From positions 36,669-100,668 of the IMG/VR virus record IMGVR_UViG_3300043473_000069: a DNA stretch of 64,000 nt. One strand, written 5' to 3'. The position numbers were made by a program, and so were the translations under genes. The notes under the pieces are model-generated. The model ran no database searches, was not told where the DNA came from, and saw only the letters and a list, made by a program, of their open reading frames with translations. The DNA is from a virus (taxonomy: Duplodnaviria > Caudoviricetes). Below, one piece after another: positions 7,343 to 59,164 of the stretch; positions within the stretch are counted from its first letter, which is position 1, and each line of letters starts with the position of its first letter.

Positions 7343-7378
7343 TCCCCATACCCTCGTATCACACAGGAGCATGACATC

Positions 7379-8215
7379 GTGACAGACGTCCGAGATGACC
7401 TCTCGACGGCAGAAGAACTCTTCCGGGACAAGGAGACGAGTCTGCAGCAGGCTCGTGAGAAGATCGCAGGTCCGGTGCCGCTCATGGAAGCGGCGCCGGA
7501 CTGCCATCTCACCCTCCCTCGTGGCCTCTTCGTACGAGGGGTGTTCAAGACCGACGTGGTGGTCCGGGAACTCAACGGCCTGGACGAGGAGGCCCTGGCG
7601 AAGCACCGGGATCCCTCCGACTACTACGACATGGTGGTGGCCCTCGGCACGGAGCAGGTCGATGACTTCGACCTGACCACCCTGCCGTTGGCCGACCGTC
7701 AGGGCTGGCTCCGCAACCTGCTCATCGGGGAGCGGGACCAGATCTACATCGCCATCATCAAGGCGACGTTCGGAGACTCCAAGACTCTCTCCTTCACCTG
7801 CATGCACTGCAGTCAGGAGCAGGAGATGGAACTGGTCCTCTCCGAGGACTTCAAGCCCAAGATCGTGGCCGACGTGGACAACGACGTCTTCGTGTTCACC
7901 ACGTCCAAGGGCGACGAGTTGCAGTACCGGCTCGTCACCGGGGAGGACCAGCGGGAGGCATACGCCCGTAAGGGCGCCACCACGGCTGAGCAGAACACGA
8001 TCCTGCTGAGCCGCTGCATCACCAAGGTCAACGGTGGGCTCATCCCCGACCCGCTCAACTACGTCCGCCACCTATCGATCCGTGATCGGCAGGCGGTGCT
8101 CACCGAGTTGGTCGATCACCAGCCCTCGATCAACCTGCGACTGACCACCACCTGTGTCGCCTGCGGTCTGGAGGTTCCGCTGGCCCTCGGATGGGGCGAC
8201 CTGTTTCGCACCTGA
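7379..8215 (+). CDS. Tail assembly chaperone / gp26-like baseplate hub assembly protein
   Basis: VRELNGLDEE motif and two CxxC pairs; lies between tube and tape measure genes. Confidence 0.75.
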   Translation: MTDVRDDLSTAEELFRDKETSLQQAREKIAGPVPLMEAAPDCHLTLPRGLFVRGVFKTDVVVRELNGLDEEALAKHRDPSDYYDMVVALGTEQVDDFDLTTLPLADRQGWLRNLLIGERDQIYIAIIKATFGDSKTLSFTCMHCSQEQEMELVLSEDFKPKIVADVDNDVFVFTTSKGDELQYRLVTGEDQREAYARKGATTAEQNTILLSRCITKVNGGLIPDPLNYVRHLSIRDRQAVLTELVDHQPSINLRLTTTCVACGLEVPLALGWGDLFRT

Positions 8216-8363
8216 CGAGCAGACCCTCTACCTCAACTACGACATCATTTCCGCCCACAACATCGGCTGGACCCTCAGTGAGATACGGCTGATGACATAC
8301 AGACAGCGGAACTACTGGCTCAAGATGATCACCTGGAAGCGGGACAAGAGAGCGAATGCCTGA
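8204..8363 (+). CDS. Second frame of the tail assembly chaperone, probably reached by a programmed frameshift
   Basis: Open in the +1 frame across the chaperone stop; GWTLSEIRLMTYRQRNYW motif; no clear start or RBS of its own. Confidence 0.55.
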
Positions 8364-12806: not shown

Positions 12807-13141
12807 TGACCGTGCAGTCGGGTTCCCGCTACCAGGACGCTGAGCACCAGTTCACGGGCAAGCACTACTACGACATGTGGAGCCACCCGCTGCTGCACAG
12901 CGAGGACGGCACGCTGCGCTTCATGGACACGAGCGTGGACACGCTCTACATGCTCACCACTCTTCCCCTCCCGCCCCCACCGCCAGCGGAGTACTACGCC
13001 AAGGACGGTGAGCACTTCCCGTTCCTGGCCTTCAAGTTCATGCAGGACTCCACCCGGTGGTGGGAGATCGCTGAGGTCAACCCAGGCGTGTGGTACCCGC
13101 TCGACCTGGAGATGGGGATGTACCTCCGGGTGCCGTCATGA
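12806..13141 (+). CDS. LysM/P2 gpX-like baseplate protein
   Basis: SRY N-terminus; LAFKF..WWEIAEVNP..GMYLRVP motif. Confidence 0.8.
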   Translation: MTVQSGSRYQDAEHQFTGKHYYDMWSHPLLHSEDGTLRFMDTSVDTLYMLTTLPLPPPPPAEYYAKDGEHFPFLAFKFMQDSTRWWEIAEVNPGVWYPLDLEMGMYLRVPS

Positions 13142-14313
13142 GCCTGACCGACCTGCTGTCGCAGCCTGACGCTCGCTCGACCAAGGGCAGGGTGCCGATC
13201 TTCCGGCCCATGCTCAACGGCGAGGAGTTCGACGTGACGTTCCAGGAGGCCGGGATCCAGATGGGCGAGGGCGCCCACGACACCGTGATCGTCCAGTGCC
13301 AGTCGTCCACGTTGACCGACACGGACGGCATGCTCAACTCGGCCATCAGCTTCTACTGGGGCCAGGCACCACGGACCGAACTGTTCTGCGGCTACATCGT
13401 GGGCGTCGGCATCACCAAGTCCGGTGAGGGCTCGCTCTCCTTCGGCCTGATCATCCTCGGTGCGACCAAGGTGATGCAGGAGGGCAAGCCTCGCTTCTGG
13501 ACCAACCGCACGGTGCCCTCTGCGATCACGACGTTGGCCTACTCCAACAACCTCGGCGTGCACACCCACCAGCACGACTTCGTGTGGGGCTCGATGGCGC
13601 AGACCGATCAGTCTGACTGGAAGATGCTCGACATCCAGGTGGGTCGGCTCGGCTGGTCCACCTTCAACCGGTACGGTGTGATACTCGCCTATGACGCACT
13701 GCAGTTGTTCCAGGACTCGGGGAGCTACTGCACCCTCCAGTCGTCGCAGGACCAGGACTTCGATCCCACGGCGGAGCGGCGGCTGATCGAGTTCTCACCC
13801 AACGAGGAGTCGGACGAGAACCCTGACTCGATGGGCACCAAGGTCGCCTACTTCACCGACCGCAACGACGTCCAGGTCACCAAGCAGGCGGGTGACCACA
13901 GCAGGTACAAGTTCATCACCCAGTGGGTGCTGCGGAACGCCGAGGAAGCAGCCCTCTACGCCAACGCTCCGACGGTCAAGCCTGGCTCATGGGACCAGAC
14001 GGCCACGGCCCGCATCTGGGGTGACTCCGACATCTACCCCGGCCTGTGCGTGGACGTCGTCACGACCAACAACACCTACCTCAAGAACAAGTACGACGGG
14101 CGCTGGCTCGTGCTGGCGGTGCAGCACAAGATGGACCGCCAGTCCTTCCAGACGCAGTTGGCGATGGCCCGCCCAGCGAGTGATACACGGGTAACACAGG
14201 AGTCCTACCGTCCGTTCTGGGCTGTCGCTGGGAAGCCCCGCCCAGGCCTGTCGCTGCTCGATGGCGTGTGGACGTCGTCGTGGACCGACCCACGAGTGCA
14301 GAGCGTGATGTGA
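13138..14313 (+). CDS. Baseplate hub protein (gp27/P2 gpD-like)
   Basis: QTDQSDW motif; GDSDIYPG...YDGRWLVLAVQH C-terminus; ATGA overlap with the upstream gene. Confidence 0.75.
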   Translation: MSLTDLLSQPDARSTKGRVPIFRPMLNGEEFDVTFQEAGIQMGEGAHDTVIVQCQSSTLTDTDGMLNSAISFYWGQAPRTELFCGYIVGVGITKSGEGSLSFGLIILGATKVMQEGKPRFWTNRTVPSAITTLAYSNNLGVHTHQHDFVWGSMAQTDQSDWKMLDIQVGRLGWSTFNRYGVILAYDALQLFQDSGSYCTLQSSQDQDFDPTAERRLIEFSPNEESDENPDSMGTKVAYFTDRNDVQVTKQAGDHSRYKFITQWVLRNAEEAALYANAPTVKPGSWDQTATARIWGDSDIYPGLCVDVVTTNNTYLKNKYDGRWLVLAVQHKMDRQSFQTQLAMARPASDTRVTQESYRPFWAVAGKPRPGLSLLDGVWTSSWTDPRVQSVM

Positions 14314-16645: not shown

Positions 16646-18222
16646 GCAACGACTGGTGGCCGCTCGACTACGCCAACCCGGCGTTCCAGGTCCAGCGTCA
16701 GGAGTACGGCCTGGCGACGGGCGGCGACTACGTCCGTGGCTCGTCGGTGTCCACGCTGCCGAACACAGCGCTGCGCTACCCCACGTCGAAGAAGGGCTAC
16801 GACGCTGTCCGCAACAAGGGGTACCTCACGATCCGCCCCTTCGACTACTTCACGGCCGAGATCGCCTGGGGCTGGCCGCTCGGTATCACCGAGGAGTGGC
16901 TGGAGATGGCGCTCGTGCGCTCCGGCTTCGGTGACCCGGTCACGGTGAACGATGGCGAGACGGTGCTGTACGGCAACCGTGCTGCGTTCACCGCCGACGC
17001 CACGCTGATCCCGCCACCCATCGTGTACGACCAGCCGCTGCAGCCCGGCCACTGGTACTACTACTCGCTGTTCTTCAAGACGACGCCGCTCGACTGGGTC
17101 CAGGCGATGACCGGCAACGTGCTGATCCCCCGCAACTACGGCCACGCCGACCACCTGTGGAACGCCGTGCCGCCCTTCTACCAGACCACCGACTCCAACC
17201 TCCGTGAGGGCAACGGGCCACTGCGCCAGTTCCTCACGGTCTTCGGTTTCGAGATGGACCAGACCCGCTCCTTCGTGGAGTCGTGGCAGGAGACGTATCA
17301 CATCGACACCTGTCCCATGCCGTTGCTCAAGCGGGTGGGCGAGAACTTCGGTGAGCCCTACGCCGGGGGTATCGGTGGTGTCCGATACCGGGGTTTGCTG
17401 GCAGCCCTGCCGGAAGCCCTCTCGATGCGTGGCACCACGGTGGCGCTGCGTCAGATCATCGAGGCGGCATCGAAGTACGACTGCGACCTCTCGGTCGGCG
17501 GCAACCTCTTGCTGCTGCCCGACGACAGCGACTTCTACTACGGCACCGGGTCGTGGGCGGCGCTCAACCCCACCGTGGGCTATCCCAACCCGTACACGGT
17601 CTACACGTCGGTCTTCCTGTCGAGCACGTCACCCGGCATGGTCGCACCACCAACCAACGCTGGACGTGGATCGATGCTCGTTCGCACGACCAAGGCCGCA
17701 GCGACACAGGACCTCGTGATCACCTGCGGCGACGGCATCAACACGGAGCGCCAGATCATCCCGCTCTACACAGGCGTGCCGGTGGAGCCCAACGCCACGT
17801 ACGGCTTCTCGGTCCAGGTGAAGATGGAGAACCCCTCGGCGGTGGTGGCGGAGCTTCTGTGGTTCGGGGAGGGAGGCAACCCCTCGGACTACCTGGGCTA
17901 CACCCCCGGTGTCTCCAGCGCTCCCGCCAACAACACGGCCTGGTTCACCTACCAGGCACAGGGCGCAGCCCCGGCGGGCGCTGTCTACATGGTGCCTGCG
18001 ATCCGTGTCACCAACCGCATCTCCGGGTCGGATCCCAACTACTCGTCCTCGCTGTGGATGGCCGGGGCGATGTCGTACCTGCTGGCTGCGGGCGGCGAGG
18101 TCACGGTGCCTCCGCCGGACTCGTATCTCACGATGGGCGATCCGGCGGAGCCCCTGGGTGCGCTCGACGCCTCGGGTCACCCGACCTTCAAGCCCTACAT
18201 CATCGGGACTCCGAACACATGA
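16642..18222 (+). CDS. Baseplate wedge/tail protein (P2 gpI-like) with a carbohydrate-binding-like domain
   Basis: LWNAVPPFY..GPLRQFL..MRGT motif; follows the J-like gene. Confidence 0.7.
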   Translation: MSNDWWPLDYANPAFQVQRQEYGLATGGDYVRGSSVSTLPNTALRYPTSKKGYDAVRNKGYLTIRPFDYFTAEIAWGWPLGITEEWLEMALVRSGFGDPVTVNDGETVLYGNRAAFTADATLIPPPIVYDQPLQPGHWYYYSLFFKTTPLDWVQAMTGNVLIPRNYGHADHLWNAVPPFYQTTDSNLREGNGPLRQFLTVFGFEMDQTRSFVESWQETYHIDTCPMPLLKRVGENFGEPYAGGIGGVRYRGLLAALPEALSMRGTTVALRQIIEAASKYDCDLSVGGNLLLLPDDSDFYYGTGSWAALNPTVGYPNPYTVYTSVFLSSTSPGMVAPPTNAGRGSMLVRTTKAAATQDLVITCGDGINTERQIIPLYTGVPVEPNATYGFSVQVKMENPSAVVAELLWFGEGGNPSDYLGYTPGVSSAPANNTAWFTYQAQGAAPAGAVYMVPAIRVTNRISGSDPNYSSSLWMAGAMSYLLAAGGEVTVPPPDSYLTMGDPAEPLGALDASGHPTFKPYIIGTPNT

Positions 18223-19619
18223 CCGCTGTCTTCTCCAACTTCTTCCGCACGCAGTTGGCGACCACGCCGACGCTCATGGACACGGCCAAGATCACGATGC
18301 TGTTCTTCAGAGAGGCCCCTGACTTCAGCGGCAACGATCCTCGATACGCCGGTTTCGATGAAGCCGAGGACCTGTTCAACCAGTCGGGTTGGGTCCCCGC
18401 TGCTGGCACCGGCCTGCCCCTCCCGTCACCGGCCAACGACCTCACCGTCAGCGTGCGCCCGCAGGGTGTGAACCGCTACGTGATGTGGTCGCAGTACCTC
18501 CTGCCTGCCAACGTCTCGCCGGTCGAGGTGAAGGCGGTGGCCTTCGTCTACAAGGGCACCGTCGCTGGCGTCTCGGACCCGGTGATCTTCATCTCCAACA
18601 CGCCGTTCGGTGATCGTGAGGTGGTCAAGGGCAACGATGGCATCACGTCGGCGCCGGACCCCACGCTCACCGGCTCCAACCGGTGGCTGTTCTCGTGGGC
18701 CATCCCAGCCGGTGGTGTCACGCAGGTGACGGCGATCGAGGGCTCGCTGGCCCTCACCAAGAGCCCGCCGTCTTTCGAGACGAGCCACACTCAGCACGTC
18801 TGGCTGTACCCGCAGCGGGCCAACATGATCGCCAACCCCAGCTTCGAAGCGCCCGGCACCAACTTCTGGTCCTGTAACGGCAGTATCACACGAGTCGCTG
18901 AACCGGCTCCTCTGGGCGACGGTCGTCAGAGTGGCGGCGCCTGGGCAGGGCGGTTCACCGGCACGTCCCCGCTCATCCTGGAGTCCAACGTCTTCCCGAC
19001 CCAGCGGGAGGAGTACTGGACGGTGCAGTTCATGGCGAAGGGTGCAGGCACCGTCAAGGTGGGGCTCGTGTGGTGGGACGACGACTACGCCGAGACGGCG
19101 GTGGACTGGGGCACCGAGACGTGGACGCTCAACACCGCCAGCTACATCCACGTCGTCATCTGCCGCACGCTGTACCAGACCTACCAGGCGATGCTCCGCA
19201 TCGAGGTCCAGGGCACCTCCATCACGCTCGATCGTGTGCTCGTGGAGCGGGGCTTCCTCAAGGACTGGCCGTACTTCGACGGTGGCACCACCTACGGCGC
19301 CCGTGATGACTTCTCCTGGTACGGCGGTGCCGCTCGCCAGGGTGCGACGTACTCCCTCTGGTACAACAACAAGCGGGCCACCTACGGTCGGCTGTTCCAG
19401 CGGGACGTGGCTGACAACGTGCTGCTCACCGACGAGGTGGAGGCGGCGCAGGGCAAGGTCTACCAGTGGGTGCCCGCCGGGACCATCGTGGTGCCGCACA
19501 TCGACGTGCTCTACCCCAACGACCTGCAGGCCCCGGTGATCCCCAAGACGCCCGGCGTGGTCATCCCCTACCGCAGCAACATCTCGGACGCTGACAAGGT
19601 ACGGAACCCTTGGGTGTAG
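18219..19619 (+). CDS. Tail/baseplate structural protein with a CBM-like domain
   Basis: True start is probably ATG 18219 (overlap); NMIANPSFE...YFDG motif. Confidence 0.65.
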   Translation: MTAVFSNFFRTQLATTPTLMDTAKITMLFFREAPDFSGNDPRYAGFDEAEDLFNQSGWVPAAGTGLPLPSPANDLTVSVRPQGVNRYVMWSQYLLPANVSPVEVKAVAFVYKGTVAGVSDPVIFISNTPFGDREVVKGNDGITSAPDPTLTGSNRWLFSWAIPAGGVTQVTAIEGSLALTKSPPSFETSHTQHVWLYPQRANMIANPSFEAPGTNFWSCNGSITRVAEPAPLGDGRQSGGAWAGRFTGTSPLILESNVFPTQREEYWTVQFMAKGAGTVKVGLVWWDDDYAETAVDWGTETWTLNTASYIHVVICRTLYQTYQAMLRIEVQGTSITLDRVLVERGFLKDWPYFDGGTTYGARDDFSWYGGAARQGATYSLWYNNKRATYGRLFQRDVADNVLLTDEVEAAQGKVYQWVPAGTIVVPHIDVLYPNDLQAPVIPKTPGVVIPYRSNISDADKVRNPWV

Positions 19620-19907: not shown

Positions 19908-20786
19908 GTGGCAATGCATGTGGTACTCGGTGACGGGGAGATGACCCGCAAGGAACTCACCGAGACGTTGAAGGACCTGTGGGACAAGGCGGGCGACGAG
20001 GCCTTCTGGTTCGTCCTGCTCGGCAAGAGCGAGCCCAGCGACACCGATCAAGCCCTGGTGTCGTGGCTGCACAAGAACGAGATCTACTACGAGATCGTGA
20101 CCGACGACGCCGACTCGGTGTCGGACGTCTACTCCCAGGCGCAGGAGACGCACACCGCCAAGAGGCTGGCGCAGAAGATCGGGAACCTCCTGCAGACCAA
20201 GCCCGAGGACGATGAGGACGCCCTGATCCTGGCTCTCTTCGTGTCGGAGGATCCCTCGGCCGAAGAGGACCGGTGGCTCAACACCATCATCCGCTCGGCC
20301 ATGGACGAGGGCTTCCGTGCTCTCGCCCTCAACGACGGCCTCGTGGAGGTCCAGGTGGATGGCGGTGCTCCCGCCAAGGAAGAGGAAGCAGTGGCCGAGA
20401 CGCCCAAGAAGACCCCGGCCAAGAAGGCTGCTGCCCGTCCGGCGGAGCCGGAGCCGGAGACGGAGCAGATGACCCTGCCCGGCACCGGGGGCTACACACG
20501 GGAGCAACTGGAAGACCTGGACATGGGGGCGCTCAAGGAGATCGCCGCCGGGATGGGCATCGAGTTGCCGCCCAGGACACGGATGAACACCTACATCGAC
20601 CACATCCTGGGCGAGGTCAAGGGCGAGGCCCCGGCCGTCGAGGTGACGGAGCCGCCCGTGACGAAGGTGATCGAGCACGAGGTCCCGCTGTCCGGCTCGT
20701 CCGGCACCAACGGTGACCTGCCCCCGGTCGATGAGATCGTGGAGCAGGTCCTGGATCGACTGGCGAAGCTCCTCCAGGAGCGGTAG
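19908..20786 (+). CDS. Hypothetical protein with a Rho-N/SAP-like helical motif
   Basis: AGGAG RBS; YTREQLEDLDMGALKEIAAGMGI motif. Confidence 0.6.
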   Translation: MAMHVVLGDGEMTRKELTETLKDLWDKAGDEAFWFVLLGKSEPSDTDQALVSWLHKNEIYYEIVTDDADSVSDVYSQAQETHTAKRLAQKIGNLLQTKPEDDEDALILALFVSEDPSAEEDRWLNTIIRSAMDEGFRALALNDGLVEVQVDGGAPAKEEEAVAETPKKTPAKKAAARPAEPEPETEQMTLPGTGGYTREQLEDLDMGALKEIAAGMGIELPPRTRMNTYIDHILGEVKGEAPAVEVTEPPVTKVIEHEVPLSGSSGTNGDLPPVDEIVEQVLDRLAKLLQER

Positions 20787-20852: not shown

Positions 20853-20975
20853 GCGTTCTCCGGAGGTTTCGGAATCGAAATCTCCAAGAAGGCATACCTC
20901 TGTATCACACGTAGACGGACCCCCCAAGGATCGTTGCGTCCTGTGGTGTCAATGTGACGTAGGTCACTGTCGCTT

Positions 20976-21002
20976 CTGTCAAAGATACGGTATCTTTGAC
21001 AG
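20976..21002. promoter_or_regulatory. 27-bp palindrome, candidate operator/promoter
   Basis: CTGTCAAAGATAC-G-GTATCTTTGACAG; contains TTGACA on both strands. Confidence 0.65.
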
Positions 21003-21022
21003 TGACACACAGCCGAGCAAGG

Positions 21023-22129
21023 ATGGGCGACGTGGATCTCTCCGAACTGACCTCACAACTGAACCAGGGGTACGACGTCCCCGACGATGTCATGGAGTCG
21101 ATCCTCAACCGGGACGTCCGGGCCATCGCCCTGATCGCCATCGGACTCGGCTGGCGGGTCGGCAAGGCCAAGGGGATCAACCTCACGGCCGAGGACGGCA
21201 CTGCCGTACAGCTTCCGACCAACGCCGGGCTCAACTTCAAGGTCTTCCGCTCTCGCATCCGCACTGTCGTCCGCCACGGCGTGATCCGCACCCGTCTCCC
21301 CTTCACCGAATGGGTCGAGCAGTGCATCGTGATCACCAAGCTGGAGCACTCGCACGCCAACCTCGTGCGGGAGGCAGTCGCTGCCATCACGTCGGAGCAG
21401 CACTGGCAGAACGTCGGCGGCGGTGTCCTGGAGAAGGACGACATCGTGGTCACCCACGGGAAGCCGACTCGGTCAGAAGCGAATCGGCCAGATGTGGCCG
21501 ATTCCCCTGCCCCTGACCACATCACTCGGGAAGAGCCGTGGAGCGCCCATGGTCGGGTCCGCTCCGGTGGTTCCGAGACGTACCCCAGCGACGCCGTGAT
21601 GGAGCGGGTGTGGAGCAGCGGCAAGCACGACTACATCTGCCGCTGGCCCGACTGCGACTACGTCAGCGACATCCCCCGCTCGACGGCTGCCCACTACGGG
21701 TCGCACGTCCGGGGTCAGGGCAAGGCGCCGCAGCCCGAGGCCGATGGCATCGACCCGGCGTGGGCGCCCCGCCAGACTGCTCGTATCACACGGTTGCGCC
21801 GTGAACTTGACGGAGCCCTGCTCGCCGCCCTCGCTGCTGGGCTGGACCTGCGGACCCCGGAGTTCTCCCACTTCCTGGCGCAGTGGATCATCGACCACCG
21901 CATCGAGTCAGCCGGTGGCGATGTCGATGGCGGCGAGGACGAGGGACCTCTGTCCACGGAGCAGATCCTGGACAAGATCTCCGCTCTGGCCGACCGTGGC
22001 CGCTCCAAGATCCTGCGTGAGCAGTTGGACACCCTGAACGCCCTCCTGGACGAGAGTGAGGGAGCCCGCCGCAAAGCCGAGGGGAACCTCCATGCTCTCC
22101 GGGACCTACTGAACGAGGAAGAGAACTGA
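21023..22129 (+). CDS. Hypothetical protein with a C2H2-like zinc finger
   Basis: YICRWPDCDY...AAHYGSH; coiled-coil C-terminus. Confidence 0.65.
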   Translation: MGDVDLSELTSQLNQGYDVPDDVMESILNRDVRAIALIAIGLGWRVGKAKGINLTAEDGTAVQLPTNAGLNFKVFRSRIRTVVRHGVIRTRLPFTEWVEQCIVITKLEHSHANLVREAVAAITSEQHWQNVGGGVLEKDDIVVTHGKPTRSEANRPDVADSPAPDHITREEPWSAHGRVRSGGSETYPSDAVMERVWSSGKHDYICRWPDCDYVSDIPRSTAAHYGSHVRGQGKAPQPEADGIDPAWAPRQTARITRLRRELDGALLAALAAGLDLRTPEFSHFLAQWIIDHRIESAGGDVDGGEDEGPLSTEQILDKISALADRGRSKILREQLDTLNALLDESEGARRKAEGNLHALRDLLNEEEN

Positions 22130-22739: not shown

Positions 22740-22958
22740 GTGACGGTGTCCTACTTCCAAGACGACGAGCACGCACTGCACACAGGGATGTTCATCGGCT
22801 CGCTGATGAAGGCCGGATTCCAGGTCATCGTGGAGATGGACGCCGAGCAGAACTACACCAACCTGATGACGATCGTCTTCCCCGGCGATCGCTTCGTGGA
22901 CGAGTTCTCCCTGCATATTGCGGTGATGCCGGGTCCAGCGGAGCCGCCTCCGGCCTGA
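22740..22958 (+). CDS. Hypothetical protein
   Basis: Coupled ORF with typical codon usage. Confidence 0.5.
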   Translation: MTVSYFQDDEHALHTGMFIGSLMKAGFQVIVEMDAEQNYTNLMTIVFPGDRFVDEFSLHIAVMPGPAEPPPA

Positions 22959-23162
22959 CCTTCGTGTGATACAGGCGTATGCCTGGAGAGTTGCTGGCAA
23001 CAATTTCGCTCTTCGTCTTGCTTCGCTCTTACCCATCGTCTACGGTGTCCCCCGTGCCGGGCGGCACAGAGAGGGAGGGAGGCGGGACGTGAACAACACT
23101 CTCGGCGGACCTCTGTTCTGCGATGCCTGGTACTTCCAATCCAACCCATAGGGAGTAGCTAC

Positions 23163-26395: not shown

Positions 26396-26417
26396 AGTTG
26401 CTAGCAAGCGGGAACCC

Positions 26418-26453
26418 AAAGAGGCCCACTCCCAATCGGGGGTGGGCCTCTTT
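26418..26453. terminator. Intrinsic terminator, possibly bidirectional
   Basis: AAAGAGGCCCACTCC-loop-GGGGTGGGCCTCTTT. Confidence 0.8.
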
Positions 26454-26549: not shown

Positions 26550-27461
26550 ATGGCAGAACGTACTAGAAGGCCGACCCGCTCACAAGTCTTCCGCTTCCTG
26601 AGAGAGCTTCAACGACCTGAGAGCATCAGCCGACGCCAGTGGCCGGGCGTCAAGGCCTTCCTCTACGTCGTTGCAAGGGCGTACCCGCACCCCTACAAGA
26701 GCCAGGCGACCCTGGCTGACGAGATGGGTGTGACGGTCCGTTCAGTGAAGCGGTACGTCCGGTTGGCGAGAGACGCAGGGTTGCTAGTAGTAGAGGCAGA
26801 CGCCGGGATGAAGCGTCCCTGGAGCCCTCGTCGGACCAACCTGTATCACATCATGTGTGATACGAAAATGTCCCCTTCCAAACAGGGCAAATTGTCCCCC
26901 AAAGAAGAAGGGATACTGACGTATCCCTCCCGCCCAGCGAAAGGTCCTCCGGACCAGACTTCGTCTGGTCCATCGGCCCGGCCCGGCCAAGCCGGGCCAA
27001 CAAGAGTCCGTAGGATCCCCCGGATGCCAGAGCCCGCCCGCACGGCCAGTGAAGCCATCGCAGCAGCCAACGAGAAGGGTCGTATCACACGGCGTCCGAG
27101 GAAGGGCGACAAGGATCCCTCACGGCGGATGGAGGAGCACTTCCTCAACCAGTGGGACTGGGTGGTGGAGTCGGTCCCCTCCCTGGCGCCAGTGCGAGTG
27201 CTCGACAACCGTCACGAGCCGAGGGGGTACCTCCGTGCGACCTTCTTCGCTCCCTCGGCCGGACGGACGTACACCGAGGACGAGGTGCACGAGTTCATCG
27301 ATGAGTTCATGAAGGCCGTGGTGCGAGGGCTGCGGCCGAGGCCGCAGCAGTCGGCGTGGAAGCTCTTTACCGGGTGGTGGGGGCGCAAGCCCGTCGCCAC
27401 GGACGCCGCCGCCGTGGCCGGTGAGTACTTCCGCTTGACGGGTCCCGCCGACCCGGCGTAG
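26550..27461 (+). CDS. HTH replication initiator-like protein
   Basis: SQATLADEMGVTVRSVKRYV..ARDAGLL..TNLY winged-HTH pattern; first gene of the replication module. Confidence 0.7.
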   Translation: MAERTRRPTRSQVFRFLRELQRPESISRRQWPGVKAFLYVVARAYPHPYKSQATLADEMGVTVRSVKRYVRLARDAGLLVVEADAGMKRPWSPRRTNLYHIMCDTKMSPSKQGKLSPKEEGILTYPSRPAKGPPDQTSSGPSARPGQAGPTRVRRIPRMPEPARTASEAIAAANEKGRITRRPRKGDKDPSRRMEEHFLNQWDWVVESVPSLAPVRVLDNRHEPRGYLRATFFAPSAGRTYTEDEVHEFIDEFMKAVVRGLRPRPQQSAWKLFTGWWGRKPVATDAAAVAGEYFRLTGPADPA

Positions 27462-29833: not shown

Positions 29834-30753
29834 TGGACCTCACAGCGGTACTTGAACAGGCAGGTATCACACCCCTGCGGACGAACAGGCAGGAGGTCAT
29901 CGCTCGCTGTCCGCAGCATGAGGTTCGTACCGGCAAGGCCGACGTCCACCCCTCGTGGTCGATCAACAGCGTGACATACACGCACTTCTGCTTCTCATGT
30001 GGTTACCGAGGGACGCTGACCAGCCTGCTCATCGACATGACGGGCTCAGCACCAGAGGACCTGGAGAAGACGCTCGCCAAGGACTCGTTCCTGCGGAAGA
30101 TGGCGGGCGTCCGGGCCGACCCCGAGACGACCCTGGCTCCGGTCATCCCACTGCTCACCGAGTGGGTGCTGCTCAACATCATGGGCGACGTGCCCGCCAA
30201 GCTGCTCAGCTTTCGGCACCTCCAGCGGGACGCCGTCGATGCGTACCAGGTGCGCTGGGACACGGACACGCACCGCTGGGTGCTTCCTCTACGCTCGACG
30301 GCTGGTGACCTCCTGGGCGCTCAGTACAGGCAGAAGGGCAGCGTCTACACGCTCCCCGAGGGCATGGAGAAGAAGAAGACGCTCTTCGGCTTCGCCCAGT
30401 GCTGCGATCATTCGTACTGCGCCATCGTGGAGTCGCCACTGGACGCCGTCCGTCTCTTCGGACTGGGCATACCGGCGCTCTCTCCACTCGGGGCGTGGGT
30501 CAGCAACGAGCAGGTGCGTCTCCTGGCTTGCACGTTCACCCGTGTGTACATGGCTCTCGACAACGACAAGGCGGGACGTGAGTCTGCTGAGCGGTTGGCT
30601 CCGGCTCTCCGCAAGGCGGGCACGGTCCCGATCCCGTGGTCATACGAGGGCCTGGTGGACGAGGACGGCGACCCGGCCAAGGACCCCGGCGACGTAGACG
30701 ATGATGACCTGCTGCTAGCAAGTTGGAGTCGCACCCTGCGTATGGGACTATGA
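29833..30753 (+). CDS. DNA primase (CHC2 zinc finger + TOPRIM)
   Basis: CPQH..CFSCG; IVESPLDAV; LDNDKAG; KDPGD. Confidence 0.9.
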   Translation: MDLTAVLEQAGITPLRTNRQEVIARCPQHEVRTGKADVHPSWSINSVTYTHFCFSCGYRGTLTSLLIDMTGSAPEDLEKTLAKDSFLRKMAGVRADPETTLAPVIPLLTEWVLLNIMGDVPAKLLSFRHLQRDAVDAYQVRWDTDTHRWVLPLRSTAGDLLGAQYRQKGSVYTLPEGMEKKKTLFGFAQCCDHSYCAIVESPLDAVRLFGLGIPALSPLGAWVSNEQVRLLACTFTRVYMALDNDKAGRESAERLAPALRKAGTVPIPWSYEGLVDEDGDPAKDPGDVDDDDLLLASWSRTLRMGL

Positions 30754-31044: not shown

Positions 31045-32600
31045 CACTGGAGCTTCGGCCGTACCAGGAGGAAGCGGTCGAGCGCATCCTCGATCGCAGC
31101 AGCCTGCTGCTCGCCCTCACGATGGGTGCTGGCAAGACCGCCACCTCGATCGCTGCCATCCGCAAGCTGCGGCGTGAAAGGGCGGTATCACACGGCGTGG
31201 TCTTCGCTCTCAAGTCGACCAAGTGGCAGTGGGTACGTGAGATACACAAGTGGGACCCTCGGGCACGGGTGCAGGTGGTGGACGGCGACAAGGCTGAGCG
31301 CACCAGGGCCATCAAGCGAGCCCAGCACTACGAGTACACGATCCTCCACTACCAGTGCCTGATCCACGACTGGGACGTCATCACGACGCACCTGCCGATC
31401 GACTTCGTGGTGCTGGACGAGGTCACCACGATCAAGAACTTCTCGGCCAAGACCACCAAGCGAGCCAAGATCCTGGGGAAGCATACGGAGGTACGGCTCG
31501 GGCTCTCCGGCCAGCCCGTGGAAGGGGTGCCCGAACACCTGTACTCCATCATGGAGTTCATCGACCCTGACGTGCTGGGTGGCTTCCACAAGTTCGACCG
31601 CACCTTCATCGAGCGGGACCACTGGGGCAAGCCTGTAAGATACAAGAACCTCCACCTGATCAAGGACCGCCTCGGGCCTGCGATGTACCGCAAGAGCCGG
31701 GAGGACATCAGCGAGTGGCTGCCGGACATGATCGAGCTACCGATGCCGGTGGAGCTAGAGCCTGAGCACATGGCGCTGCACGACCTGGTCAAGGACGAGT
31801 TGAGTGCGGCCATCGACAAGGCCCTGGCGGCAGGGGCCAGGGGAGGGAGCTTCGACATCCAGGCGCACTACGGCCGTACACCTGGAGGACATGACGCTGG
31901 GCTCATGGGTGCTGTCATGTCACGGATGCTCGCCATGAGGATGCTCAGTAGCCATCCGGCTCTCCTCAAGGTGTCGGCCGACAACTTCGATAGCCCGGTA
32001 TCGAGGTCTGGCAGCCAGTACGCATCTGAACTGCGAGCCGCTGGGGTTCTCGACTCCCTCCCTCCGACTCACGCCAAGTTGGACTCCCTACTGGAGATGG
32101 TCAGGGAGATCGTGGACGAGGACCCTCGGCACAAGGTGGTGATCTTCTCGTTCTTCAAGCCGATGCTGTCGATCCTCGGTATCGAGCTACGAAAGCTCGG
32201 TATCACACACTCGACCATCACCGGCGACGTGTCAGGGCTGGAGCGGGACAAGCGGATCCAGTCCTTCAACACCAACCCCGACCACCGTGTGTTCCTGTCG
32301 TCGGACGCAGGCGCCTACGGCATCAGCCTCGGTGCTGGCAGCCACCTCATCTGCTACGACCTGCCGTGGAGCAGTGGAGCCCTGGCTCAGCGCATCAGCC
32401 GCATCGATCGGACCGACAGCCTCTTCGACCAGATCATGATCGGCTACATGTTCGGCCAGGACACCATCGAGGAACGCATGTTCAACATGCTCCAGCAGAA
32501 GCGCAAGATCGCTCGTGCGTTCATCGACGGGGAGTTCGACTACAAGAGCGGCACGCTGACGCTGGACCTGCAGAGCCTTCGTGAGTTCCTGGATGCCTGA
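31041..32600 (+). CDS. SNF2-family helicase
   Basis: LRPYQ, MGAGKT, LDEV, LSGQP, DLPW..QRISRIDR motifs. Confidence 0.9.
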   Translation: MTLELRPYQEEAVERILDRSSLLLALTMGAGKTATSIAAIRKLRRERAVSHGVVFALKSTKWQWVREIHKWDPRARVQVVDGDKAERTRAIKRAQHYEYTILHYQCLIHDWDVITTHLPIDFVVLDEVTTIKNFSAKTTKRAKILGKHTEVRLGLSGQPVEGVPEHLYSIMEFIDPDVLGGFHKFDRTFIERDHWGKPVRYKNLHLIKDRLGPAMYRKSREDISEWLPDMIELPMPVELEPEHMALHDLVKDELSAAIDKALAAGARGGSFDIQAHYGRTPGGHDAGLMGAVMSRMLAMRMLSSHPALLKVSADNFDSPVSRSGSQYASELRAAGVLDSLPPTHAKLDSLLEMVREIVDEDPRHKVVIFSFFKPMLSILGIELRKLGITHSTITGDVSGLERDKRIQSFNTNPDHRVFLSSDAGAYGISLGAGSHLICYDLPWSSGALAQRISRIDRTDSLFDQIMIGYMFGQDTIEERMFNMLQQKRKIARAFIDGEFDYKSGTLTLDLQSLREFLDA

Positions 32601-39414: not shown

Positions 39415-39429
39415 AGAGGTATCACACAC

Positions 39430-40566: not shown

Positions 40567-40931
40567 GCGATCCCAGCGAGGTCCCGGAGTCCGCACCTCC
40601 TGAGGTGATACAACAGGAGGACCCATCACGGGAGCCGTGCCCTCACTGCGGTAAGTCGTTGACGCACAAGAGCCTGCCTGGTCACATCCGCAAACAGCAC
40701 GGGATCTACATCCGCCGACCACGGGGCCGTCCACCTGGCTCCACCAACAAACCGAAGGCGCCGCTCTCCCTCTTGCCCCGCCGACCCGACCCACTCACTG
40801 CCGAACAGATCACCCACGCCACTGCTGCCATGCTGTGGCCGGACGGGGTGCCGCTGGATCGACTGGAACGACTGCTCCGTTGGCACACTCAGACTGCCGT
40901 GTTCTTGGACATGGTGCAGGACAGCGAGTAA
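40563..40931 (+). CDS. C2H2 zinc finger + AT-hook protein
   Basis: CPHCGKSL..HIRKQH followed by RPRGRPPGSTNK. Confidence 0.7.
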   Translation: MSDPSEVPESAPPEVIQQEDPSREPCPHCGKSLTHKSLPGHIRKQHGIYIRRPRGRPPGSTNKPKAPLSLLPRRPDPLTAEQITHATAAMLWPDGVPLDRLERLLRWHTQTAVFLDMVQDSE

Positions 40932-40948
40932 CACACAGGAGCAACGCC

Positions 40949-41395
40949 ATGAGCAACCCAGCGGAGAAGTTCGCAGACCTGGACTACCCCGGAAGGAAGA
41001 GGCCGATGAACCGTGACACACAACCGGCCTCCACTGATACGGAGCTATGGGACGCCAAGCCCGTGTACTACCTGATCGGCGGCGAGCGTCAGGAGTTCTT
41101 CCTGATCAGCCACCTCGCCAAGGCACTGGACTACAGCGTCCAGAGCATCCGGGCGTGGGAAGCGCAGGGGTTGCTGGCAAGGACGCCGTACCGTTCGCCT
41201 CGGACGGCTCGACCGGTCGCTGGTGGGCGCAGCGACAAGGGCAAGCGTCTCTGGACACGGGAGCAGGTGATGGGTATCGTCCGGATTGCGAAGAAGCACA
41301 AGGTGATCTTCCCGGACCGCAAGGGCGTGAAGCACCCACCGACGCCAGCCTTCGCAGCCGAGGTTGGGGAGTTCTTCAACAGCCTCACCAAGTAA
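40949..41395 (+). CDS. MerR-like HTH DNA-binding protein
   Basis: ISHLAKALDYSVQSIRAWEAQGLL..RLWT; AGGAG RBS. Confidence 0.75.
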   Translation: MSNPAEKFADLDYPGRKRPMNRDTQPASTDTELWDAKPVYYLIGGERQEFFLISHLAKALDYSVQSIRAWEAQGLLARTPYRSPRTARPVAGGRSDKGKRLWTREQVMGIVRIAKKHKVIFPDRKGVKHPPTPAFAAEVGEFFNSLTK

Positions 41396-41434
41396 CACAC
41401 ACTGCACCCTGCACCTGACACACGAGGTCACAAC

Positions 41435-44240: not shown

Positions 44241-44270
44241 GAATCAGAGGCGTGTGATACCGTCATACGT

Positions 44271-45052: not shown

Positions 45053-46123
45053 ATGGTGAGCATGCCCAACGAGATCGACGCCCTCATCGCTTCCATCAAC
45101 CGCAAAGCGAAGGAGGACGTCCTGGTCAGGGGCTCAGCGCTCCGCCACCTCACCTGGCAGAGGGCCACGACGGGGGCTCTCGCCTTGGATCTGGGGCTTG
45201 GCGGAGGCTGGCCTCTGAACTGCTGGAACGAGGTCATTGGCAACGAGTCCTCGGGCAAGACCAGCCTCATCCTCAAGACCATCGCCGCCCAGCAGGCAGC
45301 GAACCCGGAGTATCACACGCTGTGGCTCGCCAGCGAGGACTTCGACCCGGAGTGGGCAGCCACCCTCGGTGTGGACGTGGACCGCATGACGTTCGTGATG
45401 ACCAACGTCATGGAGTTGGCCTACGACGCAGCGCTGGCCGTGATGGAGGAGCGAGCGACCGACGCCGTGGTGCTCGACTCGTACCCCGCTCTGGTCCCGT
45501 CCGACGAGGACGAGAAGACGATGCAGGAACTGACGGTGGGGCGGGGTGCGTACTACACCAACAAGTTCATGCGGAAGTCGTACGCCGCTATGAGACGGAG
45601 CCTCAGCGAGTACGACCGTCCGGTGCTGGGCCTCTTCGTCAACCAGTGGCGGGAGCGCATCGGTGTGTTCCAGGGTGACCCCCGTATCACACCGGGAGGG
45701 AAGGGGAAGAACTACTCCTTCCTCACCCGCTTGGAGGTGGCCCGGCTGGAGTGGATCTCCAACTCGGCCAAGCTCAAGGTCGGCCAGGTCATCCGCTGCC
45801 GCACGATCAAGAACAAGACGGCACCGCCGCAGCGTGACGCTGTCCTCGACTTCTACTTCGATGACCACAAGGCGCACACCGCTGGCTCGTATGACACACT
45901 CAAGCAGGTGCACTCCATCGCCCTCGTCACCGGGATCCTGGAGCAGTCCGGGTCCTGGTACAAGTTCCGGGACCGCAAGTGGCACGGCGAAGAGAAGGTG
46001 CTGGCCGACATGCAGGGCGACCAACTGCTCACCGCTGCGCTGACCAACGAGGTCCGTCACCTGCTCCTGGGTGAGCCCCTGGTTGAGTATGAGCCAGCAC
46101 CCAAGCGTCGGCGCACGGTGTGA
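45053..46123 (+). CDS. RecA/UvsX-like recombinase
   Basis: TGALALDLGLGGG, GNESSGKT, VLDS, NQWRE and TPGG motifs. Confidence 0.92.
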   Translation: MVSMPNEIDALIASINRKAKEDVLVRGSALRHLTWQRATTGALALDLGLGGGWPLNCWNEVIGNESSGKTSLILKTIAAQQAANPEYHTLWLASEDFDPEWAATLGVDVDRMTFVMTNVMELAYDAALAVMEERATDAVVLDSYPALVPSDEDEKTMQELTVGRGAYYTNKFMRKSYAAMRRSLSEYDRPVLGLFVNQWRERIGVFQGDPRITPGGKGKNYSFLTRLEVARLEWISNSAKLKVGQVIRCRTIKNKTAPPQRDAVLDFYFDDHKAHTAGSYDTLKQVHSIALVTGILEQSGSWYKFRDRKWHGEEKVLADMQGDQLLTAALTNEVRHLLLGEPLVEYEPAPKRRRTV

Positions 46124-48714: not shown

Positions 48715-49114
48715 GGGTCTGGGCACTGGGCACGAGACAGCCATCGTCCGCTGGCTCAAGGAGCACGGCTGGCCGTGGGCTCATCGCCGCACGCAGAAGG
48801 GCAGCGCCGACGAGGGAGACGTGTGTCTCTCGGAGCGCATCCCGTTCACGATCGAGGCCAAGACGGCACGCAAGACGACTGACCGCATGGCTGTCGGTAC
48901 CTGGGTACGAGAGCTTGAGGCGGAGGTCACCGCCGTCGGTGACGTGGCCGGTGCGGTCATCTTCAAGCGCCGGGGTACCACCGACGTGGGCGAGTACATC
49001 GCCATCATGCCGGTCAAGTACCTGAACCACCTGCTAGAGGCCACCTTCGGTGAGGATCAAGTTCCTCTAGAGAAATCTGCGAAGCGGGTGAGAGTCATAC
49101 CTCGGTACCAGTGA
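48698..49114 (+). CDS. Holliday junction resolvase (Hjc-like)
   Basis: GTGHE..DEGD..IEAK..KRRG. Confidence 0.8.
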   Translation: MANPTKGLGTGHETAIVRWLKEHGWPWAHRRTQKGSADEGDVCLSERIPFTIEAKTARKTTDRMAVGTWVRELEAEVTAVGDVAGAVIFKRRGTTDVGEYIAIMPVKYLNHLLEATFGEDQVPLEKSAKRVRVIPRYQ

Positions 49115-49155
49115 TGGCGTACGCTCCTATCGGACCTTGTCCCTTAGGAGCATCC

Positions 49156-49443
49156 GTGGCTGTAACAACCGAGCCTGTCGAGAACCTGCTGCGGGTGTCG
49201 GCCACGACTCCACCGCAGGCCATCGCCCAGTCCATCAACCGAGCGCTGATGGACGGTGGCCCGCCCATCATCCGTGCCATCGGTGCTGGCGCCGTGGCGC
49301 AGGCCTGCAAGGGCATCGCCATCGCTCGTGGGATCGTCGCCACCCGAGGGCGTGACCTCGCCACGACGATCGGCTTCGACACGGTGACCGGTGACTCGGG
49401 ACAGGAGATCTCGGCACAGACCTTCCACCTGTTCCTGCGGTAA
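49156..49443 (+). CDS. spoVS: SpoVS-family (Alba-fold) protein
   Basis: LRVSA..AIGAGAVAQACKGIAIARG..ISA; AGGAG RBS before GTG. Confidence 0.85.
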   Translation: MAVTTEPVENLLRVSATTPPQAIAQSINRALMDGGPPIIRAIGAGAVAQACKGIAIARGIVATRGRDLATTIGFDTVTGDSGQEISAQTFHLFLR

Positions 49444-49449
49444 CACACG

Positions 49450-57628: not shown

Positions 57629-57646
57629 GACGAGTAGCCTCCAGCC

Positions 57647-58060: not shown

Positions 58061-58064
58061 CACC

Positions 58065-58307: not shown

Positions 58308-58309
58308 TC

Positions 58310-58522
58310 GTGCCCAGGACAGGGCGGAACTTCGACGCCTTCCAGCAGGGTGCTGGAACGGCCCCTGAGACGACGTCGTACTGCTGCGCCGAGTGTGGGT
58401 ACGCCTCGGACAACCGTCGCCACTTCAAGAGCGCCGAGGGTGGCAAGACCTGTTCCACGGGCCACTATGAAGACAAAGAGGGCAACGTCAAGCGGGCTCG
58501 CAACCCGTATGCCCACCGATAG
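58310..58522 (+). CDS. Small zinc-binding protein
   Basis: CAECG...CSTGH. Confidence 0.5.
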   Translation: MPRTGRNFDAFQQGAGTAPETTSYCCAECGYASDNRRHFKSAEGGKTCSTGHYEDKEGNVKRARNPYAHR

Positions 58523-58534
58523 GAGTATCACACA

Positions 58535-59164
58535 GTGCCACGTCTCGTCTGCTGCCACTTCTGCCATGTGCTACAGCGCATGCCGGACATCCCGCCTGAC
58601 ACTCCCAAGATCCCGTACATCTTGGAGTACACGACGGGAGAGCGCTTCGTGGTGCCAGACGACACCGGGCTCCCGCAGATGGTGCCTGCGTACGACCCGG
58701 TCCTGGAGGACTTCGTCACCAAGCACGACCACGGCATGCCCGATACCGCCGTAACACACGGCCAGATGATCGAGTCGTGGCAGGTCGACCAGAAGACCTG
58801 GGAGGCCATGGATGTGGTCACCAAGATCAAGAGTGAGTTGCAGAAGCAGCACAACACCGTCTACGAGGAGTCCGACGAGTACAAGGACGCCGCCCTTCGG
58901 TGCTACAACGCCCACAACAACCCCGATCTCGCCAGCGGCTGCATCGACTACATGGACGATTCCAAGCGGATCGGCCAGGCGACGTACGACGACGGTGACG
59001 GCCACACCATCACCGTGCCGCCCAAGTTCCGCCAGTACCTCTGCTACGTATGCCCGTATCAGCAGAGTGTGATACAGGTCGAGATCCGCCGTCGTAAGGG
59101 CCTCTACGACGACAACAAGAACCTCGCCCAGCGTGCCAAGCGACGCAAGCGCCACCGCCGATGA
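58535..59164 (+). CDS. Cys/His-rich hypothetical protein
   Basis: AGGAG RBS; CHFC and YLCYVCP motifs. Confidence 0.65.
   Translation: MPRLVCCHFCHVLQRMPDIPPDTPKIPYILEYTTGERFVVPDDTGLPQMVPAYDPVLEDFVTKHDHGMPDTAVTHGQMIESWQVDQKTWEAMDVVTKIKSELQKQHNTVYEESDEYKDAALRCYNAHNNPDLASGCIDYMDDSKRIGQATYDDGDGHTITVPPKFRQYLCYVCPYQQSVIQVEIRRRKGLYDDNKNLAQRAKRRKRHRR

Follow-up and report, generated by a model that had tools for sequence, protein, structure and literature searches.

The 64-kb stretch of DNA analysed here (the window) is the last 64 kb of G000, a single virus contig of 100,668 bp from an uncultured, contractile-tailed soil phage. It carries a dispersed 9-bp word, GTATCACAC, which is described below together with a candidate reader, the C2H2 zinc-finger product of gene 40563-40931. 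G000 has a GC content of 65% and a CheckV completeness of ~85%. The structural genes in the window encode the tail sheath, baseplate J and a tape-measure-like protein. A replication block encodes a lambda O-like initiator, DnaB, a primase-like protein, an SNF2 helicase, PolA, RecA and a Cas4-like exonuclease, and a Ro60/TROVE gene and an amidase endolysin are also present. The terminase, portal and capsid genes are located in the left arm of G000, outside the window. The plus strand carries ~85-90% of the G000 genes.

Among deposited phages, the Streptomyces myophages BRock, Alone3 and GiJojo come closest, with a protein identity of only ~30-34%, and a near-identity search gave no match. A search with the sheath protein recovered many metagenomic relatives, and G000 was compared with ten relatives (G001-G010). 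The motif-bearing set consists of G001, G002, G003, G005, G008, G009 and G010, and the motif-poor set consists of G004 (93% complete), G006 and G007 (both complete).

A dispersed 9-bp word under selection as DNA

GTATCACAC is under selection as DNA, in a lineage-specific manner and with enrichment in intergenic regions. It occurs in 17 exact copies in the window, 12 on the plus strand and 5 on the minus strand (13676, 22964, 26855, 44252 and 59067), and every copy counted in a first-pass annotation of the window was recovered at its position and on its strand. Dinucleotide shuffles of the window give 0.35 expected copies with a maximum of 2, which corresponds to an enrichment of ~50-fold and bears out the earlier estimate of less than one copy by chance. 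The whole G000 contig contains 25 exact copies (16 plus and 9 minus), and the word is the joint commonest 9-mer despite being AT-rich in a GC-rich genome. Exact and variant copies of the family together number ~70 in G000. The additional 8-mer copies that had been listed (10025, 14612, 17295, 26843, 28217, 36310, 42661, 43919, 46670 and 48104) were all confirmed, as were the GTAACACAC and GTATGACAC variants.

Twelve of the 25 exact copies are located in coding DNA. A protein-preserving shuffle of synonymous codons gives 0.62 expected coding copies (maximum 3), so that the enrichment survives a codon-aware null at ~20-fold, and a codon-order shuffle gives 0.12. All 12 coding copies contain one or more rare codons (ACA, 6% of Thr; ATA, 2% of Ile; GTA, 4% of Val; TAT, 8% of Tyr). 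The word is found in all frames and on both strands, and antisense copies are ~40-fold enriched (9 of the 25 copies in G000 versus ~0.2 expected). A second word, TTGGCGTAG, which is enriched in G001 and G005 and takes the place of the 27082 site in G001, was rejected as a partner motif. It is a coding artefact that occurs only in antisense orientation and in one frame, where it encodes Tyr-Ala-Lys/Asn, and it served as an internal control. A literature search for the 9-mer returned incidental primer matches only.

The sites in the window are listed below by coordinates and strand, with codon usage or the state in relatives where noted (nt, nucleotides).

7356..7364, plus strand: exact site in the full form (CCATACCCTC-GTATCACAC), intergenic, 13 nt past the stop codon of the tail-tube gene, with AGGAG directly after it; exact in G001 and CTATCACAC in G003.
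13676..13684, minus strand: exact site, antisense within the tail gene 13090-14313, where it forces an ATA Ile codon (2%); exact in G001.
18883..18891, plus strand: exact site within gene 17553-19619, with an ACA Thr codon (6%); one mismatch in G001.
20902..20910, plus strand: exact site in the full form (GCATACCTCT-), intergenic, 85 nt before gene 20996 and immediately past a hairpin with a 10-bp stem that follows gene 19908-20786; exact in G001.
21783..21791, plus strand: exact site within gene 20996-22129; exact in G001.
22964..22972, minus strand: exact site in the full form, intergenic, in reverse orientation 5 nt past the stop codon of gene 22740-22958.
26843..26863, no strand assigned: tail-to-tail inverted pair GTATCACAT / GTGTGATAC within the initiator gene, directly after the part that codes for the winged HTH.
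26910..26927, no strand assigned: palindrome GGGATAC-TGAC-GTATCCC (the ATAC-N4-GTAT dyad alone), ~45 bp past the 26843 pair, across a locally AT-richer stretch.
27082..27090, plus strand: exact site within the initiator gene; not conserved in G001.
29864..29872, plus strand: exact site near the 5' end of the primase-like gene, right after DnaB; exact in G001.
31185..31193, plus strand: exact site within the SNF2 helicase gene, with the rare codons GTA and TCA; exact in G001 and G005.
32200..32208, plus strand: exact site within the SNF2 helicase gene; exact in G001.
39419..39427, plus strand: exact site, intergenic, 4 nt past the stop codon of the RHH gene, whose TAG belongs to the upstream ATAG box, and before the ATG at 39430.
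40928..40936, plus strand: variant GTAACACAC, in which TAA serves as stop codon for the C2H2 gene, followed by the AGGAG and ATG (40949) of the MerR-like gene; same arrangement in G001, and GTATCACA at the equivalent junction in G002.
41392..41400, plus strand: variant GTAACACAC that holds the TAA stop codon of the MerR-like gene, 34 nt before gene 41435.
44252..44260, minus strand: exact site, in reverse orientation 11 nt past the PolA stop codon; GTAACACAC at this place in G003.
45310..45318, plus strand: exact site within recA, with a TAT Tyr codon (8%); exact in G002 and one mismatch in G003.
45684..45692, plus strand: exact site within recA.
49440..49448, plus strand: variant GTAACACAC that holds the TAA stop codon of gene 49111-49443, 1 nt before the start codon at 49450.
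58525..58533, plus strand: exact site, intergenic, 2 nt past the stop codon of gene 58310-58522 and before the GTG at 58535, with its 5' edge overlapped by AGGAG.
59067..59075, minus strand: exact site, antisense within gene 58535-59164, where it forces an ATA Ile codon.

The three copies that had been placed at translation starts (7356, 39419 and 58525) end 14, 2 and 1 nt before start codons, respectively.

The site extends beyond the 9-bp core. In an alignment of 25 sites, A is observed at position -6 in 19 of 25 and a purine at position +9 in 21 of 25, with weaker preferences for T at -7 and A at -8. The full site is ~18 bp long and is described by (A)(T)A(C/G)-N4-GTATCACAC-R, i.e. A-N5-GTATCACAC-R. 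It contains a weak ATAC-N4-GTAT dyad, of which only one half carries the CACAC extension. The tolerated variants GTATCACA(T/A), GTATCTCAC, GTAACACAC and GTATGACAC are also enriched, and GTAACACAC serves where the TAA stop codon of the upstream gene is part of the site (40928, 41392 and 49440). Inverted site pairs occur at variable spacing in G000 (genome positions 56/71 and 1218/1232, window positions 26843/26855), and those of G002 are arranged either head-to-head with perfect 15-bp arms or tail-to-tail with a 3-6 bp gap.

Two arrangements of paired sites are observed outside the window. Between 61.7 and 63.3 kb of G002, three intergenic cassettes, 0.6-0.9 kb apart, each form a perfect 15-bp inverted repeat of two motifs (TGTGATACCAGTGTA-N6-TACACTGGTATCACA and variants) with compensatory changes in the stem. 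A Shine-Dalgarno (SD) sequence and a start codon follow the gene-side copy of each cassette, and a conserved ACACGG...GATTTCT tail follows the other copy. At the left contig end of G000, three tandem 10-bp repeats of CCCTGTG(T/A)GG (84-113) come directly after a head-to-head motif pair (56-79), and two more sites in reverse orientation follow at 145 and 246. The left-end arrangement (56-113) may represent an early control region or an end-related element.

Placement and conservation of the sites

The sites are concentrated between genes and are found in both orientations. In each of five genomes, ~40% of the sites are non-coding, versus 11-12% of the DNA. Of 133 intergenic sites from eight genomes, 58% point the same way as the next gene and 42% the opposite way, with both orientations enriched, and ~35% of all copies oppose the gene direction. 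A start-proximal subclass is recognizable, since 19 of the 77 co-oriented intergenic sites (~25%) are located within -10 to +5 nt of a start codon, versus 9% of the others. Two junction designs recur, one in which a stop codon is followed by the site, AGGAG and the start codon and one with the order ATAC-GGAG-GTATCACA-ATG (G002 and G003). The head block, from terminase to sheath, is poor in sites in G000, G002 and G003. The densest tagging is observed in the early small-gene region beside the left helicase, with 16 sites in 13 kb in G002 and 6 in 2.2 kb in G003.

Unbiased word statistics identify GTATCACA as the top enriched word in G000, G001, G002, G003, G005, G008, G009 and G010, and its enrichment in the motif-bearing genomes is 10-28 times the dinucleotide expectation. 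The relatives keep the same TA 6-7 bp upstream of the core and the same spacer, and the flanks vary by lineage (e.g. GGTATCACAAC in G002 and G003). In G001, the exact 9-mer is kept at 7 of the 11 alignable G000 sites at a flank identity of 73-87%, compared with ~13% expected by drift. In farther relatives the sites turn over, and the site behind the tail-tube gene (7356) is inverted in G002. Five further contigs that encode 27-44%-identical C2H2 homologues in conserved synteny contain 2-8 copies of GTATCACA per 13-20 kb versus ~0.3 expected.

The motif-poor relatives G006, G004 and G007 have sharp dispersed words of their own. G006 lacks GTATCACA entirely and contains CATTGACACTGAC in 19 copies versus 0.16 expected and TGTGACAAC in 21 copies, a genome-wide motif system of its own. 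The early region of G004 contains ~8 copies of GGTTTCTGCTAGCA, and the dispersed word of G007 is TGTCAATGTC. The presence of other lineage-specific words in these relatives argues for phage-encoded recognition. It may be that this phage group generally has genome-wide tags, each with a reader specific to its lineage, and that such systems are exchangeable.

Further words were noted in the same genomes. The early region of G004 (100.5-106.3 kb) repeats GTGTTGGTTTCTGCTAGCAC ~8 times, and the related GTTGCTAGAAAC and TTGCTAGCAA are found in G000 and G002. In G000, words of the GTTGCTAGAAAC / TTGCTAGCAA type are located at 26398-26407 of the window and at 211-222 of L068, and TGCTAGCA is enriched in L092. 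The GTGTTGGTTTCTGCTAGCAC, GTTGCTAGAAAC and TTGCTAGCAA words may constitute an early promoter or operator family common to the phage group. G007 (45% GC) contains the canonical DnaA-box word TTATCCACA in 11 copies versus 0.8 expected. The 8-bp palindrome CTTCGAAG, which contains TTCGAA, has 10 sites in G000 (20 over both strands versus 1.6 expected) and 11, 15 and 16 in G002, G003 and G004, respectively, and is nearly absent from G005-G010.

A C2H2 zinc-finger protein as candidate reader

The selection on both strands, the clade-specific conservation, the intergenic enrichment and the joint gain and loss of the sites with a phage DNA-binding protein lead us to infer a phage-encoded DNA-binding reader, and the comparative data make it very likely that the motif is a selected protein-binding DNA site with phage-encoded specificity. 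The first-pass annotation had proposed a binding site for a phage repressor, nucleoid or partition protein. The general idea of a phage-encoded DNA-binding protein agrees with the sequence comparisons, and its partition component was abandoned because neither a ParA ATPase nor a ParB_N domain was detected in six-frame domain searches with working controls on the 85% complete G000 genome. The ParB-like open reading frame (ORF) at 513 has only a weak PHROG match (E 5e-4), and the sites accordingly do not qualify as parS elements of a ParABS system.

In a screen for the reader, 142 G000 ORFs were compared with the ten relatives by tblastn. A single one of the 142 is shared by all motif-bearing genomes in which its region is covered and is missing from G004, G006 and G007.

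40563-40931, plus strand: candidate reader gene, encoding 122 amino acids (aa) with a C2H2 finger, an AT-hook-like RRPRGRPPG segment and a C-terminal two-helix hairpin.

A family-profile search likewise finds the C2H2 family in G002 (1e-29) and G003 (9e-50) and not in G004, G006 or G007. All 10 genomes or contigs with the C2H2 gene carry the motif, and the 3 without the gene lack the motif or are motif-poor (the relic in G004). The family is very small, with 30 members among 5.8 billion proteins. The gene is not among the four candidates named in the first-pass annotation. Motif-poor G004 has three of those, the ParB-like (513), RHH (39220) and MerR-like (40949) proteins, and the ParB-like protein also occurs in G006; the fourth, the HTH protein at 26550 (the lambda O-like initiator), is retained in G004 with ordinary divergence. 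The proteins encoded by 20996-22129 (377 aa) and 22740-22958 (72 aa) initially matched the presence/absence pattern but were rejected as readers owing to their absence from motif-bearing G008-G010, which cover the region.

The finger of the candidate reader (CPHCGKSLTHKSLPGHIRKQH) contains the ligands C26, C29, H41 and H46, which are invariant in 30 of 30 family members, and some members contain two or three fingers. The ligands follow the pattern C-x2-C-x11-H-x4-H, in which the canonical x12 is shortened by one residue. The finger is followed by a basic linker, which includes a canonical RPRGRPPG AT-hook in the G000 subgroup, and by a conserved C-terminal segment. In an AlphaFold2 model, two strands (residues 23-25 and 32-34) and a helix (residues 38-46) form a beta-beta-alpha finger with a pLDDT of 83-87, and a flexible linker leads to a two-helix hairpin with a pLDDT of 98. 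A search of the PDB with the family profile (hmmsearch) returned the solved C2H2 fingers Aart (5.9e-16), a consensus finger (9.8e-9) and ZNF435 (6e-5). Pfam ROS_MUCR gave no match in the candidate reader at E<=0.05.

G004 provides the key contrast. Two independent module trees, of ten tail proteins and of six replication proteins, rooted on G006/G007, agree in placing G004 as the sister of the G008/G009 clade and hence within the group of genomes that have both the gene and the motif. The genes that flank the C2H2 gene are retained in G004. The upstream neighbour is present in diverged form (hhalign probability 91%), and the downstream 91-aa gene is 53% identical to its sister-clade counterpart. 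The two flanking genes abut in G004, which indicates that only the zinc-finger gene was deleted there, and cleanly. The site density of G004 is 4-6 times below that of the sister clade, with a residual enrichment of ~5-fold. Such a residue would be expected of relics that decay once the reader is lost.

The upstream neighbour of the C2H2 gene was also considered as a reader.

40258-40566, plus strand: gene for a highly conserved, probable zinc-binding protein of 102 aa (phrog_4480) with invariant C20, H25, C46 and C49.

This gene is always immediately upstream of the C2H2 gene and overlaps it. The mean column identity of its product is 69% across the relatives, far above that of its neighbours, and the product is probably a zinc-binding protein of some core function. 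It was rejected as the reader because it is present in motif-less G006 and, as the diverged copy, in G004.

On these grounds, the C2H2/AT-hook protein is proposed as the reader of A-N5-GTATCACAC-R, and we assign this explanation as a whole a probability of about 0.5. The phage lineage would keep an 18-bp double-stranded recognition site at ~25-70 places per genome. The finger would read the CAC(A/C) part of the site in the major groove, and the AT-hook or basic arm would contact the adjacent TAT/ATA steps in the minor groove in a GAGA-factor-like manner. The C-terminal hairpin would dimerise the protein. Given a flexible tether of 30 residues, the dimer could then engage paired sites at many spacings regardless of their orientation, or connect sites that are far apart. 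Binding at gene boundaries, chiefly in the early small-gene region, would modulate transcription by the host RNA polymerase. The likeliest effect would be a shut-off or road-blocking of early and middle genes that leaves the site-poor head block free; such repression is suggested by the dense tagging of the early region and gene junctions and the sparse tagging of the head genes. The sites could equally well have an architectural or 'self-marking' role.

Several observations weigh against the proposed reader. The co-distribution of gene and motif amounts to two independent evolutionary contrasts only, the outgroup and the G004 deletion, and the ~5-fold residual enrichment in G004 may instead reflect a second factor that uses the sites. 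A single zinc finger normally reads 3-4 bp, compared with 9 or more bp here. Only the G000 subgroup has the canonical RGRP AT-hook, and other members have a generic basic linker yet share the same core motif. The nearest folds found by Foldseek (CTCF, Tramtrack, GAGA-DNA and SALL4) are each non-significant (E 0.4 or worse). A fixed site at the boundary of the C2H2 gene itself is found only in G000, G001 and G002, which gives no clear signature of autoregulation, and autoregulation via a conserved boundary site was rejected as not general across the genomes. Finally, the regulatory direction (repressor, activator or architectural) rests on the site distribution only.

Competing explanations, known systems and significance

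The runner-up candidate binder is the replication initiator, whose gene contains three sites.

26550..27461, plus strand: lambda O-like replication initiator with a winged HTH (HTH_36; phrog_270, replication initiation).

The sites could be iterons of this initiator, with an origin inside the gene and dispersed copies that titrate or regulate the initiator in the manner of DnaA boxes. Past the winged HTH-coding part, the inverted pair, a further copy and the ATAC-N4-GTAT palindrome are arranged around an AT-richer stretch, as in lambda O. The 26843..26863 pair encodes a conserved L-Y-H-I with a non-preferred TAT codon, and a site is located at the matching L/W-Y-H-I position of the initiator in G002 (112871) and G003 (55959), again with the rare TAT codon. 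Moreover, every motif-bearing genome encodes the initiator, which G006 and G007 lack. The distribution of sites in G004 does not follow the initiator, however. The G004 initiator shows ordinary divergence (32-34% identity to the sister clade, whose members are 35% identical to each other, and 38-44% in the winged HTH), yet most sites are lost. The motif core is constant while the initiators are only ~30% identical, and in G001 the orthologous positions of the initiator gene hold no exact sites. Iterons usually stay within an origin and are not spread 25-70 times over a genome. As an account of the genome-wide sites, initiator binding is unlikely. The initiator region has three sites and a dyad around a locally AT-richer 45 bp, but no array of regularly spaced direct repeats. 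Upstream of the initiator gene (26396-26550), two strong hairpins and a TTGCTAGCAA palindrome are observed. Regions 26396-26550 and 26843-26930 form a candidate replication origin within the initiator gene, in a lambda-like arrangement.

It is quite unlikely that the motif is a phage-specific promoter or promoter element, with transcription starting at the following purine to give leaderless or AGGAG-first mRNAs and carried out by the host polymerase with a phage factor or by an unrecognised phage polymerase. The 18-bp length, the upstream AT box and the conserved +9 purine resemble promoters of single-subunit polymerases, the co-oriented intergenic copies within -10 to +5 nt of a start (25%) often stand right before AGGAG or the start codon, some copies come after terminator-like hairpins, and the early-region cassettes of G002 repeat every 0.6-0.9 kb. 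These features are outweighed by the orientation data, in which the 42% of intergenic and ~35% of all copies that oppose the genes are equally enriched in a genome with ~85-90% of its genes on one strand, and about half of the copies are intragenic. No sigma-70 region 2 was found with working controls, and T7-like RNA polymerase (PF00940) gave no match in a search whose control was silent, which makes the latter a weak negative. The spacing of TATCAC to the putative start sites misfits a -10 element; TATCAC was rejected as a sigma-70-type -10 on this ground, and a generic promoter and terminator scan of the dense left end found nothing. A T7-like promoter, suggested by the 18-bp length and the +9 purine, was dropped on the orientation statistics, as the sites are not all co-oriented, and on the lack of a polymerase or sigma factor.

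No polymerase was found among the large ORFs by Pfam, PHROGs or PDB. The 639-aa protein encoded by 59161-61080 has no Pfam, PHROG or PDB sequence match and was dropped as a hidden polymerase on that basis; it is conserved in G002, G003 and G004 at 48-51% identity.

A host regulator or nucleoid-associated protein of an actinobacterial host could also read the sites, and the lineage differences would then be host differences. The motif core is constant across phages whose proteins have diverged to 30-65% identity, and silencers of the Lsr2 type typically target patches of GC-rich DNA that contain AT (PMC7710501, silencer table). However, the motif is a sharp 9-mer and not generic AT-richness, each motif-less relative has its own different sharp word, and G004, which is nested in the clade and has the same GC content, has lost most sites together with one phage gene. 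A host reader is therefore very unlikely.

It is highly improbable that the motif acts in RNA, either as a translation-initiation signal like the start-associated sequences of mycobacteriophages or as a site for RNA processing or an RNA-binding protein. The start-adjacent subclass would fit such a role, with ATAC-GGAG-GTATCACA-ATG in G002 and G003, the sites at 39419 and 58525 and the order motif-AGGAG-start at 7356 and 40928. However, the position relative to the SD sequence and the start codon varies (before, between or far away), and about half of the copies are within genes. An RNA-level signal and a simple promoter both need one orientation and are excluded by the ~40-fold enrichment of antisense copies. 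Equally improbable is a role in another DNA transaction (site-specific nicking, recombination at hot spots that would shape mosaicism, or the marking of DNA for packaging or condensation), which could explain why the sites are dispersed at roughly kilobase spacing and turn over or even invert in place between relatives, and for which the indel-flanking repeats of Cluster O (PMC4351075) offer a precedent, but no nickase or recombinase is linked to the sites, no indel bounded by sites was seen between G000 and G001 (by inspection only), and the gene-boundary enrichment and head-block depletion point to expression.

Among known systems, the closest published pattern is the 17-bp repeat of the Cluster O mycobacteriophages (TGTTCGGNNNCCGAACA), a perfect 7-3-7 dyad of unknown function and binder (PMC4351075). 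Both motifs occur in more than 30 dispersed actinophage copies in a mix of coding and intergenic positions (~40% intergenic), without meaningful orientation, denser at one genome end and conserved within the cluster; about one third of the Cluster O repeats are intragenic (PMC4351075). The site described here differs in its asymmetric 9-bp core and weak 4-4-4 dyad, in which A(-6) and the weaker T(-7) and A(-8) mirror GTAT, and in its unrelated sequence. It also differs in that comparative genomics yields a specific candidate reader.

The first-pass annotation had drawn an analogy to stoperators and start-associated sequences, and membership in either class is contradicted by the site distribution. 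Stoperators are oriented with transcription, lose function if reversed and belong to the HTH immunity repressor of temperate phages (PMC6550527, PMC9283540). The sites resemble Cluster A stoperators (L5/TipsytheTRex repressor) in being short, asymmetric and dispersed in 20-30+ copies, many in short intergenic gaps. The stoperator reader is likewise comparable to the present candidate as a phage protein with two DNA-contacting modules, and the site consensus drifts between related phages. The sites differ from stoperators in the near-random orientation of the intergenic copies (58:42) and in the candidate reader, a C2H2 finger with an AT-hook. Moreover, neither a tyrosine integrase nor a serine recombinase was found in the six-frame domain searches of the 85% complete genome. 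Prophage relatives were not detected in 185,579 species genomes, in a search that reaches close relatives only.

The start-associated sequences of Cluster K (GGGATAGGAGCCC) are virtually all 3-7 bp from starts, in one orientation, with a Shine-Dalgarno core and in one genome half (PMC3203893). A subclass of the present sites is similarly located within a few bases of a start codon or embeds the upstream stop codon, and the inverted repeats at variable spacing recall the extended form (ESAS). Unlike these sequences, the motif has no AGGAG in its core, the SD sequence comes after the core or in the N4 spacer, and both orientations are used. The features of the start-associated class hold for a minority of the sites, as about half are intragenic and ~25% of the co-oriented intergenic copies abut a start.

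The candidate reader has parallels in two groups of proteins. Like GAGA factor (PDB 1yui), Tramtrack (2drp) and SALL4 on AT-rich DNA, it combines a single or a few C2H2 fingers with a basic arm of the minor-groove type. All three are eukaryotic proteins, and in GAGA factor the basic regions precede the finger, whereas the AT-hook follows the finger here; the fold matches are weak and DNA contacts would be analogous at most by prediction. Like the Ros/MucR proteins of alpha-proteobacteria (PMC7710501), the candidate is a small zinc-finger protein with a separate, putative self-association domain and a flexible linker. Ros/MucR proteins bind many AT-containing sites and are mainly repressors (PMC7710501). 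MucR has an N-terminal oligomerisation domain, a C-terminal beta-beta-beta-alpha-alpha finger and a degenerate AT-rich target, whereas the candidate has the reversed domain order, a beta-beta-alpha finger and a sharp 9-mer as its putative target.

Dispersed repeats are known in several actinophage clusters, and a reader has been identified for one kind only, the stoperators. Here, comparative genomics alone ties a new dispersed motif to a very small, unusual protein family, and the main support comes from G004, a natural knock-out whose sites appear to be decaying. A GC-rich host would be expected by composition alone to carry the 9-mer far more rarely than the phage, which has one per 1.5-4 kb. 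Tentatively, in a lytic actinophage lineage a genome-wide 'self' tag may be read by a eukaryote-type C2H2 finger fused to an AT-hook. This dimeric, flexibly tethered reader would organise or time expression across the phage chromosome, and such tag-reader pairs may be exchangeable, because relatives without the pair carry other sharp dispersed words. If the pair works in this way, it could provide a compact orthogonal DNA-binding part for GC-rich actinobacteria and could show how one C2H2 finger and an AT-hook reach high specificity. The 122-aa protein and the 18-bp site form a testable pair for studying how a phage times or organises the expression of its whole genome. If the proposed reading is true, the pair would define a novel type of genome-wide regulator in phages and add a rare natural example of recognition by a single C2H2 finger beyond the eukaryotes.

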